Shown in pieces: positions 1-32,162 of a stretch of 64,000 bases of DNA. The stretch comes from a virus (Duplodnaviria; Caudoviricetes), in the IMG/VR virus record IMGVR_UViG_3300032254_000001, positions 32,001 through 96,000 of that record; one strand, given 5' to 3'. Below the pieces are notes generated by a model. That model saw nothing but the letters and a program-made list of their open reading frames with translations, made no database searches and was not told where the DNA came from. The translations under genes were made by a program, and so were the position numbers. Each line of letters opens with the position of its first letter. The first letter of the stretch is position 1.

Positions 1-15
1 AGAGCCTGCTCATCG

Positions 16-291
16 CTAAGGATGATGCTGTTCTTTTGGAACCTTTGGATACACTTTGTATCTTAGGATAACTAAGATAATAACAATGTTGAATGCGTAG
101 TTAGCGACTAATGGATACAGAATGGTTGGTTGGGCGAGTACATATATTAATACGAGTACTTCGCCCCACAGCCACATTTGGAGGAATGGCATATTGACGC
201 CATGCGTGTGTCCTTCTTTGCAACTCTGCCAGGCCATTGGCACACCGCAAAATGTTAACAAGAAGCTACCTACCCATCCAATAATTTCCAT
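16..291 (-). CDS. PQ-loop/SemiSWEET-like small membrane protein
   Basis: Three TM helices; IGWVGSFLLTFCGVPMAW resembles the PQ-loop repeat. Confidence 0.7.
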   Translation of the reverse strand: MEIIGWVGSFLLTFCGVPMAWQSCKEGHTHGVNMPFLQMWLWGEVLVLIYVLAQPTILYPLVANYAFNIVIILVILRYKVYPKVPKEQHHP

Positions 292-1939: not shown

Positions 1940-2452
1940 TTATTCCTTTGCGTTATTTTGTGCCCAATCTAAATCAAGCACTTCGCCGTATTCTTCCACC
2001 ATCTCAATAGGACCTTCGTAGTCTGGAAGTCCATCTATATCCATATCGTTTATGTCATATGAGAAAGTGATGTGTGTTTTGTATTCTGGAAAATCGAATG
2101 TAGCATTATGCTCATCCATTAAGTAATCATGTCTTTCGTTTAGCTCAGGACAATCAAATTCTAAAACTAAACATTGCGGGCAATGTCCGTCATCGTCTGC
2201 TTGTCCTTCCCAAACATGCCATTCACCTGGCGTACCATGTAGAGCAGGATTAAGTTCACCCTGCGGCTTGTAATTTGGACATCTTCGTCTGCTATACAAT
2301 AAAGTAGAATGTAACTTATCTACTGGTGTAGCATTCGGGATATTGTTATTCTTAATGTATTCAACAATAGCATTCTTTGTTTCTTCACTAAAATGCACAC
2401 CTGCGTATGTACCTTTGTGATGTGTCTTTCTTATAAATTCATTTGACTTCAT
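1940..2452 (-). CDS. acb1: anti-CBASS Acb1-like 2H phosphodiesterase (T4 57B family)
   Basis: Two HxT motifs (KLHSTLLYSR, YKTHITFSYD) and C-terminal LDLDWA as in T4 Acb1; ATGA overlap with the upstream gene. Confidence 0.85.
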   Translation of the reverse strand: MKSNEFIRKTHHKGTYAGVHFSEETKNAIVEYIKNNNIPNATPVDKLHSTLLYSRRRCPNYKPQGELNPALHGTPGEWHVWEGQADDDGHCPQCLVLEFDCPELNERHDYLMDEHNATFDFPEYKTHITFSYDINDMDIDGLPDYEGPIEMVEEYGEVLDLDWAQNNAKE

Positions 2453-3417
2453 TTGCATAAACGGTAGGAATTTTTTCCTGCCTCCTTAACTTCGTACATT
2501 GCAATATCAGCACCTTCGATTAACTCATTGGTGTTGATAATACATTTCTCTCCGCTACTAAAGCAGATGCCTACGCTTGCTGTTTGTATTATTTCATTGC
2601 CATCATGTACACATGGCTTATTAAACAGATGCACTAAGTCAGCACATTTTTTAAGTAGGTCTTCTTTTTTATTATCTAGGCACGATACAACAAATTCATC
2701 ACCGCCGTAACGGGCAACAACATCTGTTTTTCTTGAAAACACAGATCTAATCTTTTCAGCAAAGTCTACAATAATTGCGTCACCTGCTACGTGTCCGTAT
2801 GTGTTATTGACTACGCTAAAGTCGTCCATGTCTAATAGGATTAACCCAACTGACGTTTTTGTTCTGTTTGCATTGTGTATTGTTCCTTCCATTTGTTCTA
2901 AGAAGAAACGCCTGTTGTACAAATCAGTGCCTGGATCTCTAAATGCTAATGCTTTTAATTCTTCTTCGTAACGTTTACGCTCTGTAATATCAGTTATCAT
3001 TGCAATGATAACTGATTCGTTACCATTTACAAACTGTAGCCTGACTTCGATCTCGTAAGTTGAGCCGTCTTTTCTTAGATGCGTAGTCTGGAATCTTAGT
3101 ATGTCTAACTCAAAAGTACGTAACGGCTGAATCATTTCAATGAACTCTGCTCGCGTAAATTCTGGCTTAACATCAAGTGGAGTCATACCTTTCATTTCAT
3201 CTAACGTGTACCCAAGGTTTTTAAGTGCGCCTTGACTAACTTCTGAGAATAGTAAGGTTTCACAATCAAATACATAAATCTCCTCAAATGAGTGTTCGAG
3301 GATCCTTTTGTATCTTGCCCTTTTATCATTAACTTCGTCTGTGATATCACATGTGGTTCCATCACGTGAACAATCGATTTTAGGCAACGGGGGGAATTTG
3401 TTTTTCTTATCGTCCAT
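2449..3417 (-). CDS. PAS-domain diguanylate cyclase (GGDEF)
   Basis: PAS/PAC region, D-x-G-T-D-L-Y-N-R-R, LDMDDF..VN..YGH..GD, intact RYGGDEF. Confidence 0.9.
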   Translation of the reverse strand: MDDKKNKFPPLPKIDCSRDGTTCDITDEVNDKRARYKRILEHSFEEIYVFDCETLLFSEVSQGALKNLGYTLDEMKGMTPLDVKPEFTRAEFIEMIQPLRTFELDILRFQTTHLRKDGSTYEIEVRLQFVNGNESVIIAMITDITERKRYEEELKALAFRDPGTDLYNRRFFLEQMEGTIHNANRTKTSVGLILLDMDDFSVVNNTYGHVAGDAIIVDFAEKIRSVFSRKTDVVARYGGDEFVVSCLDNKKEDLLKKCADLVHLFNKPCVHDGNEIIQTASVGICFSSGEKCIINTNELIEGADIAMYEVKEAGKNSYRLCK

Positions 3418-5697: not shown

Positions 5698-5780
5698 TGG
5701 TACGTCTGGAGGGAGTCGAACCCTCAAGGGATCGGGGTTTAAACCCGTTAGCTGTGCCAATTTACATAATCCACAGACGC
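5698..5780 (-). tRNA. tRNA-Leu(TAA) without long variable arm, enlarged D-loop
   Basis: Loop TT-TAA-AC, A73, CCA. Confidence 0.75.
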
Positions 5781-5790
5781 ATTGTTAATA

Positions 5791-5907
5791 GGGTGATTAC
5801 CATAGGATTCGAACCTACAAGACGACAGTCTAACAGTGTGACCAAAACTAAGCTATACAAAGTTCCAGCCTAACCACCGAATGTGCTACCAATACACGTG
5901 ATAATCA
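5791..5907 (-). ncRNA. type-II tRNA-like RNA with a ~36-nt anticodon loop
   Basis: 8-bp acceptor, D-arm, stem CGGTG/CACTG, variable hairpin, T-arm. Confidence 0.55.
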
Positions 5908-5912
5908 TTGTT

Positions 5913-5989
5913 TGGCAGGGGAGGAGAGATTCGAACTCCCAACACGCGGATTTGGAGACCGCTGCTCTAGCCATTGGAGCTACACCCCT
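5913..5989 (-). tRNA. tRNA-Trp(CCA)
   Basis: Canonical cloverleaf, G73. Confidence 0.95.
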
Positions 5990-7120
5990 TTAAATCATAC
6001 TCCAGTAATTAGTACGTGGAGTTTCTACATTCTTTGCAATGAAAATAAACTTGTCTGTTTCGTAAACTAGCTTACCTTCTTTCTCGTAAGCTAAGTCTTC
6101 GTCCTGTACGTAAATTTCATCGTATAAATCATCTGGATCAAGCTCAGGAATATCAGCTCTACCCCTAACTTGGTCTGTCCTGGCTACTGCCTTGATCTTA
6201 ATGTAAGTATATCTGTTAGCACTACCTGGCTTAGAAACAAATGGCGTTTCAAATATTTCACGCTCTGTGTCTGTGCCACGTTCGATAATTTTAACAATTT
6301 CAAGCATTGCACCTGAGCTTTCACGTAAGTCAATGTTTAAATCTTCTGTAGTATCTGCAATAGCAGTACCGAAACGTAAATGCTCTTCAACAATTGATTG
6401 TAACATATCAAAGCTGAATATGTTCGAGCGTCTTGATACATCGGTAATATCTTTAACTATTTCTTTGCTTACTCCATTGTCTTGGCAGTAACCAACAATG
6501 CTACCTTCATCCAACTTCTTGTACTTGAAGTGGTAGTAAACACGACTTGGGCGATTCAGCATAAAGTCGTTAATATCAAGTTCGCTGTTCTCAGTCAATA
6601 TGAACATACGCTTTGTTTTATCAACACCGTCCATAAGTGACAACAGTGCCTTTTGTGGTATTTCACCTTCGTTGTTATGTCTATCTGACGATGCATACAT
6701 TTTACCAAATTCATCAAATACAACAGCGCATTCGCCAATTGTTTCAATAAAGTCTGTAAACTGTGAACCAGCATATGCATCTTTAATTAACAGAACTGGT
6801 AGCTCTAAATCAGTGACTACTTTGTTTGCAAGTAAAGACATTAGTAATGTTTTACCTGTACCTTTGTCTCCTGTCAGGAGAATGCCTGTTGAAGTATCGC
6901 GATCCTTGTAAGTGTTTAAACACTTTTCAACGCGACCTGGAGTTTTACCATAAATCTTTTCAGGAAGCTCCAGCTGGTCCTTTGTAATTGTAAGGTAAAA
7001 ACCTTGCAACTGACTATACTGAACAGTATAAATTCTTGGAGGCAAAGCGTCCAGCGTTGTTTCTTCATTCATATTGAATACGTGTACGGTTGAACCGCTT
7101 ACAAAGAACTTAGTTTTCAT
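5990..7120 (-). CDS. AAA+ ATPase
   Basis: Walker A GDKGTGKT, Walker B VVFDEFGK, RPSR arginine finger. Confidence 0.85.
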   Translation of the reverse strand: MKTKFFVSGSTVHVFNMNEETTLDALPPRIYTVQYSQLQGFYLTITKDQLELPEKIYGKTPGRVEKCLNTYKDRDTSTGILLTGDKGTGKTLLMSLLANKVVTDLELPVLLIKDAYAGSQFTDFIETIGECAVVFDEFGKMYASSDRHNNEGEIPQKALLSLMDGVDKTKRMFILTENSELDINDFMLNRPSRVYYHFKYKKLDEGSIVGYCQDNGVSKEIVKDITDVSRRSNIFSFDMLQSIVEEHLRFGTAIADTTEDLNIDLRESSGAMLEIVKIIERGTDTEREIFETPFVSKPGSANRYTYIKIKAVARTDQVRGRADIPELDPDDLYDEIYVQDEDLAYEKEGKLVYETDKFIFIAKNVETPRTNYWSMI

Positions 7121-7202
7121 GTATTAGCCTTAGGTATGTGTTTATTAACTTTTAAGTATTATATGACACTTTTGAGCATTGAGCAACTATTTTGGTAAAA
7201 AT

Positions 7203-7289
7203 TGGTATTCCGGACGGGAATCGAACCCGCTAATTGCTTTCGCAAAGCCTGAGTGAAAGTCAGGTGACCGACCGTTAGTCATCCGGAAT
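7203..7289 (-). tRNA. tRNA-Glu(TTC) with long variable arm
   Basis: Loop CT-TTC-AC; V-arm TTGC-GAAA-GCAA. Confidence 0.85.
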
Positions 7290-7295
7290 ATAATT

Positions 7296-7382
7296 TGGAG
7301 CCAAGAGTGAGATTCGAACTCACGACGGGGTTACCCCTCCGGCTTACAAAACCGGTGCAATCGTCCACTATGCGACCTTGGC
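7296..7382 (-). tRNA. tRNA-Thr(TGT) with long variable arm
   Basis: Loop TT-TGT-AA; V-arm GGGG-TAA-CCCC. Confidence 0.85.
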
Positions 7383-7398
7383 AAGATAAAATGTACTT

Positions 7399-7475
7399 TG
7401 GGGTGAAGGACGAGATTTGAACTCGCATCTGACTCATTCACAGTGAGGGGCTTTACCAATTAAGCTACCGACACC
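7399..7475 (-). tRNA. tRNA-His(GTG)
   Basis: Loop CT-GTG-AA, G-1/C73. Confidence 0.9.
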
Positions 7476-7489
7476 CCAAAATACACTCG

Positions 7490-7515
7490 TAAAAAAGCAG
7501 ACCGGAGTCTGCTTT
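7490..7515 (-). terminator. rho-independent terminator
   Basis: GCAGAC-TCCG-GTCTGC followed by T6. Confidence 0.85.
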
Positions 7516-7516
7516 A

Positions 7517-7700
7517 TGGTTGTGGGACGCGGACTTGAACCGCTGGTAGATTTCCTTCCCAACTAATTTAGCTATGGGCTTCAACTCCACAGCCCAAGAC
7601 AGTAACTCAAATACTTGCCCGAGGCGGTCGACTAGGTAGTCCCCAAGTTATGAGCAAGGGCGATTTATTGTGTAGTCGATACCACACCGAAGTGCCTAAC
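7517..7700 (-). ncRNA. structured RNA ending in a T-arm and CCA
   Basis: GCGG-TTCAAGT-CCGC, GGGAC/GTCCC, CCA, internal helices. Confidence 0.5.
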
Positions 7701-7713
7701 TAAAATTCTAAAA

Positions 7714-7831
7714 TGGTGCCTCCCGCGAGACTTGAACTCGCATGACTTTCGTCGGGGGATTTTATCGAACACCCTTATTTAAAGATGCTCTGTAAAAGTC
7801 CCCTGTGTATGCCTGATTCCACCAGAGAGGC
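7714..7831 (-). tRNA. tRNA-Leu-type gene with a 32-nt insertion in the anticodon loop
   Basis: Leu D-arm, V-arm and A73; stem GGGGA/TCCCC encloses 39 nt including a 10-bp hairpin. Confidence 0.8.
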
Positions 7832-7895
7832 TTTGTTTTTGTTTATTTATTATAACATCATGTGCTTCAAATAAATACCGTATAGGAGAAACACA

Positions 7896-8510
7896 ATGAA
7901 TAGAATACAAGAATACTTACCAAGCTACTGCTACAGTTCATCTAAGATGAAAAGCGTAGATGGTATTGTTATCCACTATTTCAGTGGTAAGTATCAATTT
8001 GCAGATGATCCGTTTAACACTGAAAAATGTTTAAATCTTTTTAAAGACTTAAACCGTCCCGCTAAAGAGCGAGAACACTTTAAGATGAACGATGTGCAAA
8101 AGCGTATGTACGCTTCAGCACACTTCATGATTGCACGAGACGGTACAATATATGATCTAGTTCCACTTCCACAACGTGCATGGCATGCTGGTAAATCCGA
8201 ATGGAACGGTAAGTCGCATTGCAATAACTGGATGGTTGGTATCGAAATGGTTGCTACTGGTAGCAGCGGATACACAGACGAACAGTATAAAGCACTTATT
8301 AATCTTACTGAAGAACTAATTAAAGAACACGATATCTCTTGGGATAACATCACAGGACACGAAAATGTCGCTCCTGGACGTAAAAGAGATCCAGGTTCAA
8401 AGTTTGATTGGGATCGTTATCGCGCAATGAAAGAACCAGCTAAGTTAGCATATGCTGCCGCTATGGCTGAATACATTCCGTGGGCTGACGACGAAGACGA
8501 CGATTTTTAA
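7896..8510 (+). CDS. N-acetylmuramoyl-L-alanine amidase (AmpD-like; candidate endolysin)
   Basis: IVIHY, SAHFMI, AWHAG, GIEM, GHENVAPGRKRDPG motifs. Confidence 0.9.
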   Translation: MNRIQEYLPSYCYSSSKMKSVDGIVIHYFSGKYQFADDPFNTEKCLNLFKDLNRPAKEREHFKMNDVQKRMYASAHFMIARDGTIYDLVPLPQRAWHAGKSEWNGKSHCNNWMVGIEMVATGSSGYTDEQYKALINLTEELIKEHDISWDNITGHENVAPGRKRDPGSKFDWDRYRAMKEPAKLAYAAAMAEYIPWADDEDDDF

Positions 8511-8512
8511 TT

Positions 8513-8598
8513 TGGTGCGCCGGGTGGGTTTCGAACCCACACGCTCTTTCGAGCACGAGGTTCTTAGCCTCGCATGTCTGCCATTCCATCACCAGCGC
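8513..8598 (-). tRNA. tRNA-Leu(AAG)
   Basis: Loop CT-AAG-AA, long V-arm. Confidence 0.85.
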
Positions 8599-8600
8599 AT

Positions 8601-8683
8601 TGGTACGTCCGGTGGGATTCGAACCCACAAAGGTCTGGTGTTTGAAACCAGTAGCTGTGCCAATTTACATTAACCACGGACGC
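8601..8683 (-). tRNA. tRNA-Leu(CAA) without long variable arm, enlarged D-loop
   Basis: Stem CTGGT/ACCAG, loop TT-CAA-AC. Confidence 0.8.
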
Positions 8684-8691
8684 ATTACATT

Positions 8692-8774
8692 TGGTACCTG
8701 GGGCGGGAGTCGAACCCGCAAGGGTCTGGAGTCTAAATCCAGTAGCTGTGCCAATTTACATTAACCACCCAGGC
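8692..8774 (-). tRNA. tRNA-Leu(TAG) without long variable arm, enlarged D-loop
   Basis: Stem CTGGA/TCCAG, loop TT-TAG-AC. Confidence 0.8.
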
Positions 8775-31730: not shown

Positions 31731-32162
31731 TCATTTTTGGGTTCCTGGGTTGTACCACATCATCTCCCAGTACGGATAACCGTTGCTGGCGTTACAATAA
31801 TCTGTTACTTTTAATAATACAATATCCGGACATTCAGTCCAATCACGCATGAATGCTTCAATTGCTTTTGGATCGCGATCAGTCCAGTACTGGCCTTCGT
31901 TGCCAAAGTGCTTTCGCATTAGGCTGTTACACCTGGTCCAACTGGTCATTATTTTATCTGTGTCAGTATAACATAGTTTATCGTTTGCAAGTTTAGCCCA
32001 AGCTAATGTTTTATCATCTGCTTGCCACTGTACATGCGGACTATAGCTATACGGATGTTCATGCTTAGATCGTTCAACCGCGTTACCGTAAGCGTCAGTA
32101 TTAATCTGGACGCCTTCACTATAACGATATACTGCACCTGCTATATTGTACATTGTCTGCAT
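31731..32162 (-). CDS. hypothetical protein
   Basis: ORF in operon. Confidence 0.6.
   Translation of the reverse strand: MQTMYNIAGAVYRYSEGVQINTDAYGNAVERSKHEHPYSYSPHVQWQADDKTLAWAKLANDKLCYTDTDKIMTSWTRCNSLMRKHFGNEGQYWTDRDPKAIEAFMRDWTECPDIVLLKVTDYCNASNGYPYWEMMWYNPGTQK

Follow-up and report, generated by a model that had tools for sequence, protein, structure and literature searches.

The 64,000-nt stretch analysed here (hereafter the window) covers positions 32,001 to 96,000 of the IMG/VR record IMGVR_UViG_3300032254_000001, a complete uncultured-phage genome of 344,483 bp that has a GC content of 40% and direct terminal repeats. Between 1.4 and 17 kb of the window, the minus strand carries ~40 tRNA genes detected by ARAGORN, and within this operon lie three tRNA-shaped genes with leucine anticodons that are the subject of this work. 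An initial annotation had placed them at 5698, 8601 and 8692, with anticodons TAA, CAA and TAG, and we recovered all three at exactly those places on the minus strand, in register within the tRNA operon and 2–8 nt from their neighbours. We refer to them as P2-type, after a helix (P2) predicted in their core. They are listed below with their parts, together with their scores against R1 (a covariance model built from 39 gapless members of the family that they define) and with the phage's fourth Leu isoacceptor, a class II tRNA-Leu(AAG) located 2 nt from the CAA gene.

5698-5780, minus strand: P2-type tRNA-Leu(UAA), 80 nt plus encoded CCA, A73, G1.U72; R1 95.2 bits
8601-8683, minus strand: P2-type tRNA-Leu(CAA), 80 nt plus encoded CCA (8601-8603), A73 at 8604, G1.U72; R1 100.1 bits, the top match of the model
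8692-8774, minus strand: P2-type tRNA-Leu(UAG), 80 nt plus CCA, A73, G1.U72; R1 98.6 bits
8513-8598, minus strand: canonical class II tRNA-Leu(AAG) with a 15-nt variable arm (ARAGORN; Rfam tRNA, 48.9 bits; fold)
8642-8644 (CAA), 8733-8735 (UAG) and 5739-5741 (UAA), minus strand: anticodons; the 7-nt loops that hold them keep U33 and A37 throughout the family
8673-8675 (GGU, CAA gene), 8764-8766 (UAG gene) and 5770-5772 (GGA, UAA gene), minus strand: P2 5' strand, RNA nt 9-11 (from covariation)
8632-8634 (ACC, CAA gene), 8723-8725 (UAG gene) and 5729-5731 (UCC, UAA gene), minus strand: P2 3' strand, RNA nt 50-52 (from covariation and RNAalifold)
8653-8669 (CAA gene), 8744-8760 (UAG gene) and 5750-5766 (UAA gene), minus strand: D hairpin, RNA nt 15-31, with loop AAAUUGGCACA (from covariation)

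In each of the three genes, the acceptor stem has 7 bp, the anticodon stem has 5 bp and a loop of 7 nt, and 6 nt precede a standard T arm. The variable regions of ~6 nt and the A73 noted initially were present in all three, as was an encoded CCA. The genes also have in common the 17-mer ATGTAAATTGGCACAGC, which occurs exactly three times in the window (0.29 expected; 0 of 100 shuffles reached three). This shared stretch had been read as an enlarged D-loop of ~15 nt in tRNAs devoid of a variable arm. The sharing holds, but the stretch is not one loop: in relatives, covariation of its two ends defines a D stem of 3 bp that encloses 11 loop nt. The D-loop is not enlarged. A separate helix is indicated by nt 9–11, located 5' of the shared stretch, which covary with the first three variable nt. 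As for the variable arm, the genes indeed have no long arm, but base pairing involves half of their short variable region.

Homologues were gathered from dozens of IMG/VR contigs with the 17-mer and a looser pattern, and from cultured phages by BLAST. The resulting 56 distinct P2-type sequences all carry Leu anticodons (UAG in 30, CAA in 14, UAA in 10 and GAG in 2) and, without exception, A73. Of the first 44 members, 36 encode the CCA end, and the variable region has 6 nt, or 7 nt in five of those 44. In a covariance-model search, R1 separated the family, with 60 hits at ≥71 bits, from canonical short-arm Leu tRNAs (55–68 bits) and ordinary tRNAs (<50 bits), and retrieved exactly three members from the complete 344-kb genome.

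On the 39-sequence gapless alignment underlying R1, we tested a structure composed of an acceptor helix (1–7/73–79), P2 (9–11/50–52), a D stem (15–17/29–31), an anticodon stem (33–37/45–49) and a T stem (56–60/68–72). In this structure 94.9% of cells are paired, none of 500 shuffles reached any of its measures, and sliding the pairing partners lowered pairing to 53% or less. The acceptor helix is 99.6% paired and all its seven pairs covary, the anticodon and T stems are paired in 94.9% and 100% of cells, and U33, A37 and GGUUCGA..UCC are invariant. Judged from this covariation, P2 is a helix of 3–4 bp in which nt 9–11 pair with the first three nt of the 6-nt variable region. Pairing in P2 reaches 99.1%, two of its three pairs change in a compensatory manner, and at least five base-pair combinations occur: the pair 9–52 is GU in 21 sequences and GC in 18, 10–51 is GC in 25 and AU in 14, and 11–50 is CG in 21, UA in 12 and AU in 5, with one mismatch. 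Across the family, P2 is fully paired in 53 of the 56 members, and it extends to 4 bp (ACG/CGU, ACU/AGU, AUC/GAU plus G9.U) in those members of 81 and 83 nt that have a variable region of 7 nt. Given the alignment alone, RNAalifold predicts 9–52, 10–51 and 11–50. The small hairpin within the D loop that it also proposed (22–32 to 25–29) was rejected, having no double changes and two broken cells; the middle pair of the D stem (16–30) is fully compensated and never broken (GC 28, AU 8, UA 2, GU 1). In the UAA gene, A27 and A43 are mismatched, so that U12 may pair with A43, and RNAalifold proposes a 12–49 pair.

The remaining D-stem positions have U.U in 34 and G–C in 5 sequences at 15–31, and CG in 20, UG in 18 and GC in 1 at 17–29. 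The CAA gene has U.U, G–C and U.G at the three positions around its 11-nt loop. This loop is invariant on the alignment, and a 3-nt linker, U-W-A, lies between P2 and the D stem. Compared with a normal tRNA, P2-type genes have a 5-nt insertion after G9 (N-N-U-W-A), so that seven nt precede the D stem instead of the canonical two, and one more variable nt, the inserted nt being paired with the variable strand. U8, the loop A-A-A-U-U-G-G-C-A-C-A and the two U preceding the T stem are all there, most of them without variation, and might still make the usual tertiary contacts in the altered core. Two members keep P2 with shortened D loops (5720-5797 (+) of locus L011, with AAAAGCACA, lacking GG, and 10-88 (+) of locus L051, with AAACGGUACA). 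Should these members prove functional, the P2 architecture may be able to do without the G18G19 contact at the elbow.

Up to four P2-type isoacceptors occur per genome, in phages whose sizes lie between a few tens of kb and 379 kb. Clustering of open reading frames (ORFs) at 37 loci showed that the surrounding genes are unrelated from locus to locus, and the family thus spans diverse phages. The initial proposal of a conserved alternative architecture maintained across isoacceptors, as opposed to decay, is borne out by homologues that come from unrelated phages, keep Leu anticodons and A73, and covary in all stems. The same ORF clustering provided no candidate partner protein, as no protein family was present in more than nine of the 37 loci; we guess that the largest shared cluster corresponds to mobile endonucleases. 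Megablast of the region against GenBank phages retrieved no close relatives, and a search of 185,579 bacterial and archaeal species genomes with the exact 17-mer, a single sequence variant, gave 17 contig matches, none of them family members. The P2-type subclass is so far found only in phage sequences, including those of two cultured phages:

Synechococcus phage BUCT-ZZ01 (ON615601), locus L001, 3005-3084, and locus L074, 1495-1574: two copies of the P2-type gene, found by BLAST, unannotated
Rhizobium phage RHph_I1_18 (MN988519), locus L083, 2501-2580: one copy of the P2-type gene, found by BLAST, unannotated

In RHph_I1_18, a tRNA-Pro and a tRNA-Tyr gene are annotated on either side of the copy, which itself falls in a stretch without annotation. 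Since P2-type genes occur in at least two cultured phage–host pairs, BUCT-ZZ01/S. elongatus PCC 7942 and RHph_I1_18/Rhizobium phaseoli, the architecture is directly testable.

These genes largely escape standard tools. ARAGORN made no call at any of the three positions in the window, and the Rfam tRNA model (RF00005, cmscan) gave no match there even at E ≤ 1, though it found neighbouring tRNAs; a canonical tRNA reading of the three genes was accordingly rejected. In the family, ARAGORN missed 46 of 55 P2-type genes, whereas it found all 11 canonical short-arm Leu tRNAs from the studied contigs. Because both tools mostly miss P2-type genes, the Leu decoding capacity of phages is probably under-annotated: the commonest Leu codons would have no reader in phage tRNA inventories or in analyses of codon supply that start from these.

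Departures from the common cloverleaf are rare outside organelles, and the natural exceptions (tRNASec, tRNAPyl and allo-tRNAs) have each been instructive about the reading of tRNA shape by synthetases, EF-Tu and the ribosome. P2-type tRNAs would be a conserved exception to the cloverleaf that carries a new helix. The non-canonical natural tRNAs covered by a review (PMC7609411) include tRNASec, allo-tRNAs with 8/4 or 9/3 branches and armless mitochondrial tRNAs. Like P2-type tRNAs, which are predicted to be working molecules, they depart from the cloverleaf and are under-detected by standard tools; they differ by changed acceptor or T stem lengths or by the loss of arms, and P2-type tRNAs by a new helix. 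The word 'phage' is absent from this review, and its passages on Leu contain no helix between nt 9–11 and the variable region.

A tRNA-Leu without a long arm is already known from T5-like phages and Streptomyces coelicolor, so that the novelty implied in the initial annotation does not hold in that respect. The T5-like tRNAL2 of Salmonella phage 5 (AJ604531) is annotated in GenBank as a tRNA-Leu(UAA) and is 77 nt long; its cloverleaf is canonical, its variable loop has 5 nt, and the accompanying note states that, with its anticodon changed to CUA, it is an effective amber suppressor in E. coli. It resembles the P2-type in its phage origin, Leu anticodon, A73, G1.U72, 3-bp D stem, 11-nt loop with AAUUGGCA and lack of a long arm, and scores 63 bits with R1. 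Nevertheless, the T5-type has the normal two nt (8–9) before the D stem and an unpaired 5-nt variable loop, and is therefore a canonical cloverleaf, whereas the P2-type has the 5-nt insertion, one more variable nt and the extra helix. Canonical T5-type short-arm tRNA-Leu genes co-occur with P2-type genes in several phage contigs. The type I tRNALeu(CAA) of S. coelicolor also has a short variable loop and coexists with class II tRNA-Leu, and the single leucyl-tRNA synthetase (LeuRS) of this species charges it (Fan et al. 2019, PMC6614811); it differs from the P2-type in being cellular, in combining a canonical cloverleaf with a variable loop of 5 nt, in lacking the extra helix, and in a charging tied to features of the Streptomyces LeuRS. 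Class II tRNA-Leu shares with the P2-type A73, a 3-bp D stem with a 10–11-nt loop, R26, standard anticodon and T arms and an anticodon-independent identity; the D-arm format is the same, for example in the phage's own Leu(AAG). The two diverge in the variable region, a hairpin of 13–17 nt in class II and 6–7 nt in the P2-type, with 3–4 of them paired with the insertion 5' of the D arm. Our full-text literature searches found short-arm tRNA-Leu (in Streptomyces) and phage tRNA counter-defence and no P2 helix, the T5 tRNA-Leu being known via its GenBank annotation. The P2 helix with its 5-nt insertion appears to be the undescribed part, and, given the known short-arm phage tRNA-Leu, the P2-type is not a new kind of molecule. 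As a conserved oddity, the acceptor stem starts with a G1.U72 wobble in all three window genes and in 25 of the 39 aligned family members, and likewise in the T5-like tRNA-Leu and in several canonical short-arm phage Leu tRNAs.

We consider it likely, judging from their sequence conservation, that the three genes encode functional elongator tRNA-Leu species (UAA, CAA and UAG) of a non-canonical subclass with the P2 architecture, charged by the host LeuRS. TTA, TTG, CTA and CTG make up 76% of the Leu codons in 176 long ORFs of the phage, and the three P2-type tRNAs would read this ~76%, CTT and CTC being left for the class II Leu(AAG). Of the 29 family loci that have other Leu tRNAs, 25 show no overlap in anticodon between these and the P2-type genes. 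The canonical class II tRNA-Leu, of which the phage has only one, carries an A34 anticodon, uncommon in bacteria-type systems. This tRNA-Leu(AAG) would decode CUU, and a wider set of codons were A34 deaminated to inosine, and family locus L017 has a tRNA-Leu(AAG) similar to it.

Searches with PF00133 and PF13603 found no LeuRS in the phage and, since it has no such enzyme of its own, the host enzyme would have to charge the three tRNAs. In E. coli, the Leu identity set comprises A73, U8–A14, A15–U48, G18G19 and A20a, the long arm and the anticodon being dispensable (PMC9976931). The U8, the A-A, G-G and C-A of the D loop, the UU before the T stem and the A73 retained in P2-type tRNAs appear to match this set. 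The anticodon-independent recognition by LeuRS assumed in the initial annotation would fit the retained A73, U8, D-loop A-A-A-U-U-G-G-C-A and invariant UU (PMC9976931).

In the mechanism that we propose, the acceptor, anticodon and T arms are standard, the long class II arm is absent, and the 5-nt insertion after G9 would permit P2 to form. The 3' strand of P2 would run unbroken from the 3' strand of the anticodon stem, and, as in all tRNAs, R26 would link the 3' strand of the D stem to the 5' strand of the anticodon stem; the core might then be a three-way junction inside the usual junction. P2 may lie beside or under the D stem, in place of the base triples that variable-loop nt normally form in the groove of that stem, with the L shape and the elbow between D-loop and T-loop preserved, and it would leave U8, the A-A and G-G of the D loop and the UU before the T stem free for the U8–A14, 15–48 and G18G19/T-loop contacts. 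The host LeuRS would charge such a molecule by reading A73 and the D-loop/U48 tertiary set rather than the anticodon or the arm and, with the class II Leu(AAG), the three P2-type tRNAs would complete the Leu decoding set of the phage.

To our knowledge, Leu is the only class II identity whose bacterial synthetase can do without the arm, and the Ser and Tyr tRNAs of this phage retain a long arm (ARAGORN). Our best guess for the replacement of the arm is an escape from host or rival factors that pick class II tRNAs by this feature. A tRNA of phage T5 is said to neutralise the PARIS defence. The toxin MenT3 picks its tRNA targets via the long variable loop (PMC11541572). With MenT3 and PARIS as precedents, escape from arm-directed factors would be a reasonable motive. 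On balance, we lean, if only modestly, towards an unrecognised five-helix core of tRNA-Leu, present in up to four isoacceptors per genome and in phages of very different hosts, that may hide from arm-selecting factors yet keep recognition by LeuRS. If LeuRS accepts the P2 body, it would provide a compact anticodon-independent scaffold of interest for engineered suppressors, and would bear on phage tRNAs as counter-measures to tRNA-directed defences (PMC11541572).

Other readings of the same genes can be envisaged. The P2-type RNAs might be tRNA mimics or decoys, either bait for a tRNA-directed nuclease or toxin or regulatory RNAs with a Leu-tRNA surface, and not ribosomal adaptors. Their non-canonical core and the silence of ARAGORN and Rfam would suit such a role, and the operon also holds tRNA-shaped RNAs with a long arm in place of the anticodon arm (7716-7835 and 5790-5907). 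However, a decoy would have no need for covarying anticodon stems beneath four Leu anticodons, nor for several isoacceptors on one body per genome that mostly complement the other Leu tRNAs there and whose anticodons fit the dominant Leu codons of the phage. We think that strictly canonical 7-nt anticodon loops, with U33 and A37 invariant under anticodons that are only those of Leu, favour a decoding role, and regard a decoy function as unlikely. Alternatively, working tRNAs might be charged with an amino acid other than Leu, by another host synthetase or an unrecognised phage enzyme, and recode Leu codons. The altered core could shift identity, A73 is common to several identities, and the phage has other odd tRNAs (long-arm tRNAs with class I anticodons and a CUA suppressor). 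Against this stand the conserved Leu-type D arm and A73/U48 set, the annotation and use of close structural relatives (the T5-type short-arm tRNAs) as tRNA-Leu, the lack of a conserved partner protein near the genes at the 37 loci, and the harm to nearly every phage protein that misreading ~76% of the Leu codons would cause, all of which make recoding very improbable.

We give equally little weight to a class I cloverleaf with one enlarged unstructured D-loop of ~15 nt, or with a hairpin from the minimum free energy (MFE) folds, in which the 10–45 and 11–44 covariation would reflect loose tertiary contacts. Energy rules do not favour P2, and MFE folding places a 6-bp hairpin in the D region of two window genes out of three. 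This hairpin was nonetheless rejected, being only 79.9% paired, devoid of compensatory changes and with two pairs broken in 14 and 20 of the 39 sequences, whereas P2 shows Watson–Crick switches (GC/AU; CG/UA/AU) at nearly complete pairing and the middle D-stem pair is fully compensated. Finally, decayed pseudogenes or chance look-alikes would fit the silence of ARAGORN and the Rfam tRNA model, but an origin of this kind deserves almost no credence in view of 56 homologues with compensatory changes in every stem and invariant functional loops, and of exactly three isoacceptors placed in register within a tRNA operon; this conservation already contradicts decay.

Several observations weigh against the interpretation of these genes as host-charged Leu tRNAs that evade arm-directed factors. 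The UAG species has A37, whereas the CUN-reading tRNA-Leu of E. coli has G37. P2 has a mean of +1.6 kcal/mol by nearest-neighbour energies and appears in none of the 39 single-sequence MFE folds; because it has only 3 bp and is not favoured by energy rules, the case for it is made entirely by covariation. Many members of the family come from related phages, so that sequence counts overstate the number of independent events. The escape motive is without direct support, and the same phage adds long arms to class I tRNAs. Lastly, the type I tRNALeu of S. coelicolor is reportedly not charged by the E. coli LeuRS (PMC6614811), so acceptance of P2-type tRNAs by every host LeuRS cannot be assumed and is host-dependent.

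The rest of the operon contains other unusual tRNA-like genes. Eight tRNAs of 86–92 nt on the minus strand, with class I anticodons (Glu, Thr, Lys, Ile twice, Met, Gln and Asn), have lengths that suggest long variable arms. They correspond to the long-arm set mentioned in the initial annotation, and most of them have a same-anticodon copy of normal length (74–77 nt) too. Their positions are as follows:

7203-7289, minus strand: long tRNA with a class I anticodon
7296-7382, minus strand: long tRNA with a class I anticodon
8945-9031, minus strand: long tRNA with a class I anticodon
11347-11438, minus strand: long tRNA with a class I anticodon
11529-11614, minus strand: long tRNA with a class I anticodon
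11959-12046, minus strand: long tRNA with a class I anticodon
13072-13157, minus strand: long tRNA with a class I anticodon
14955-15040, minus strand: long tRNA with a class I anticodon

The two tRNA-shaped RNAs at 7716-7835 and 5790-5907, both on the minus strand and reported neither by ARAGORN nor by Rfam, have an acceptor stem, a T arm, a short variable hairpin and, in place of the anticodon arm, a long extended arm. The first, which terminates in ACCA, has a folding energy of −47.2 kcal/mol (z = −5.9), and the second is weaker (z = −1.1). Between the tRNA-His and an amidase gene, the stretch at 7480-7715 on the minus strand has no called gene and may be a third long tRNA-like RNA, with a T-arm-like GGTTCAAGTCC...CCA at about 7521-7545, at the end of the stretch. 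Adjoining the tRNA region, positions 2449-3417 of the minus strand encode a PAS-GGDEF diguanylate cyclase (Pfam GGDEF, E = 5e-38).

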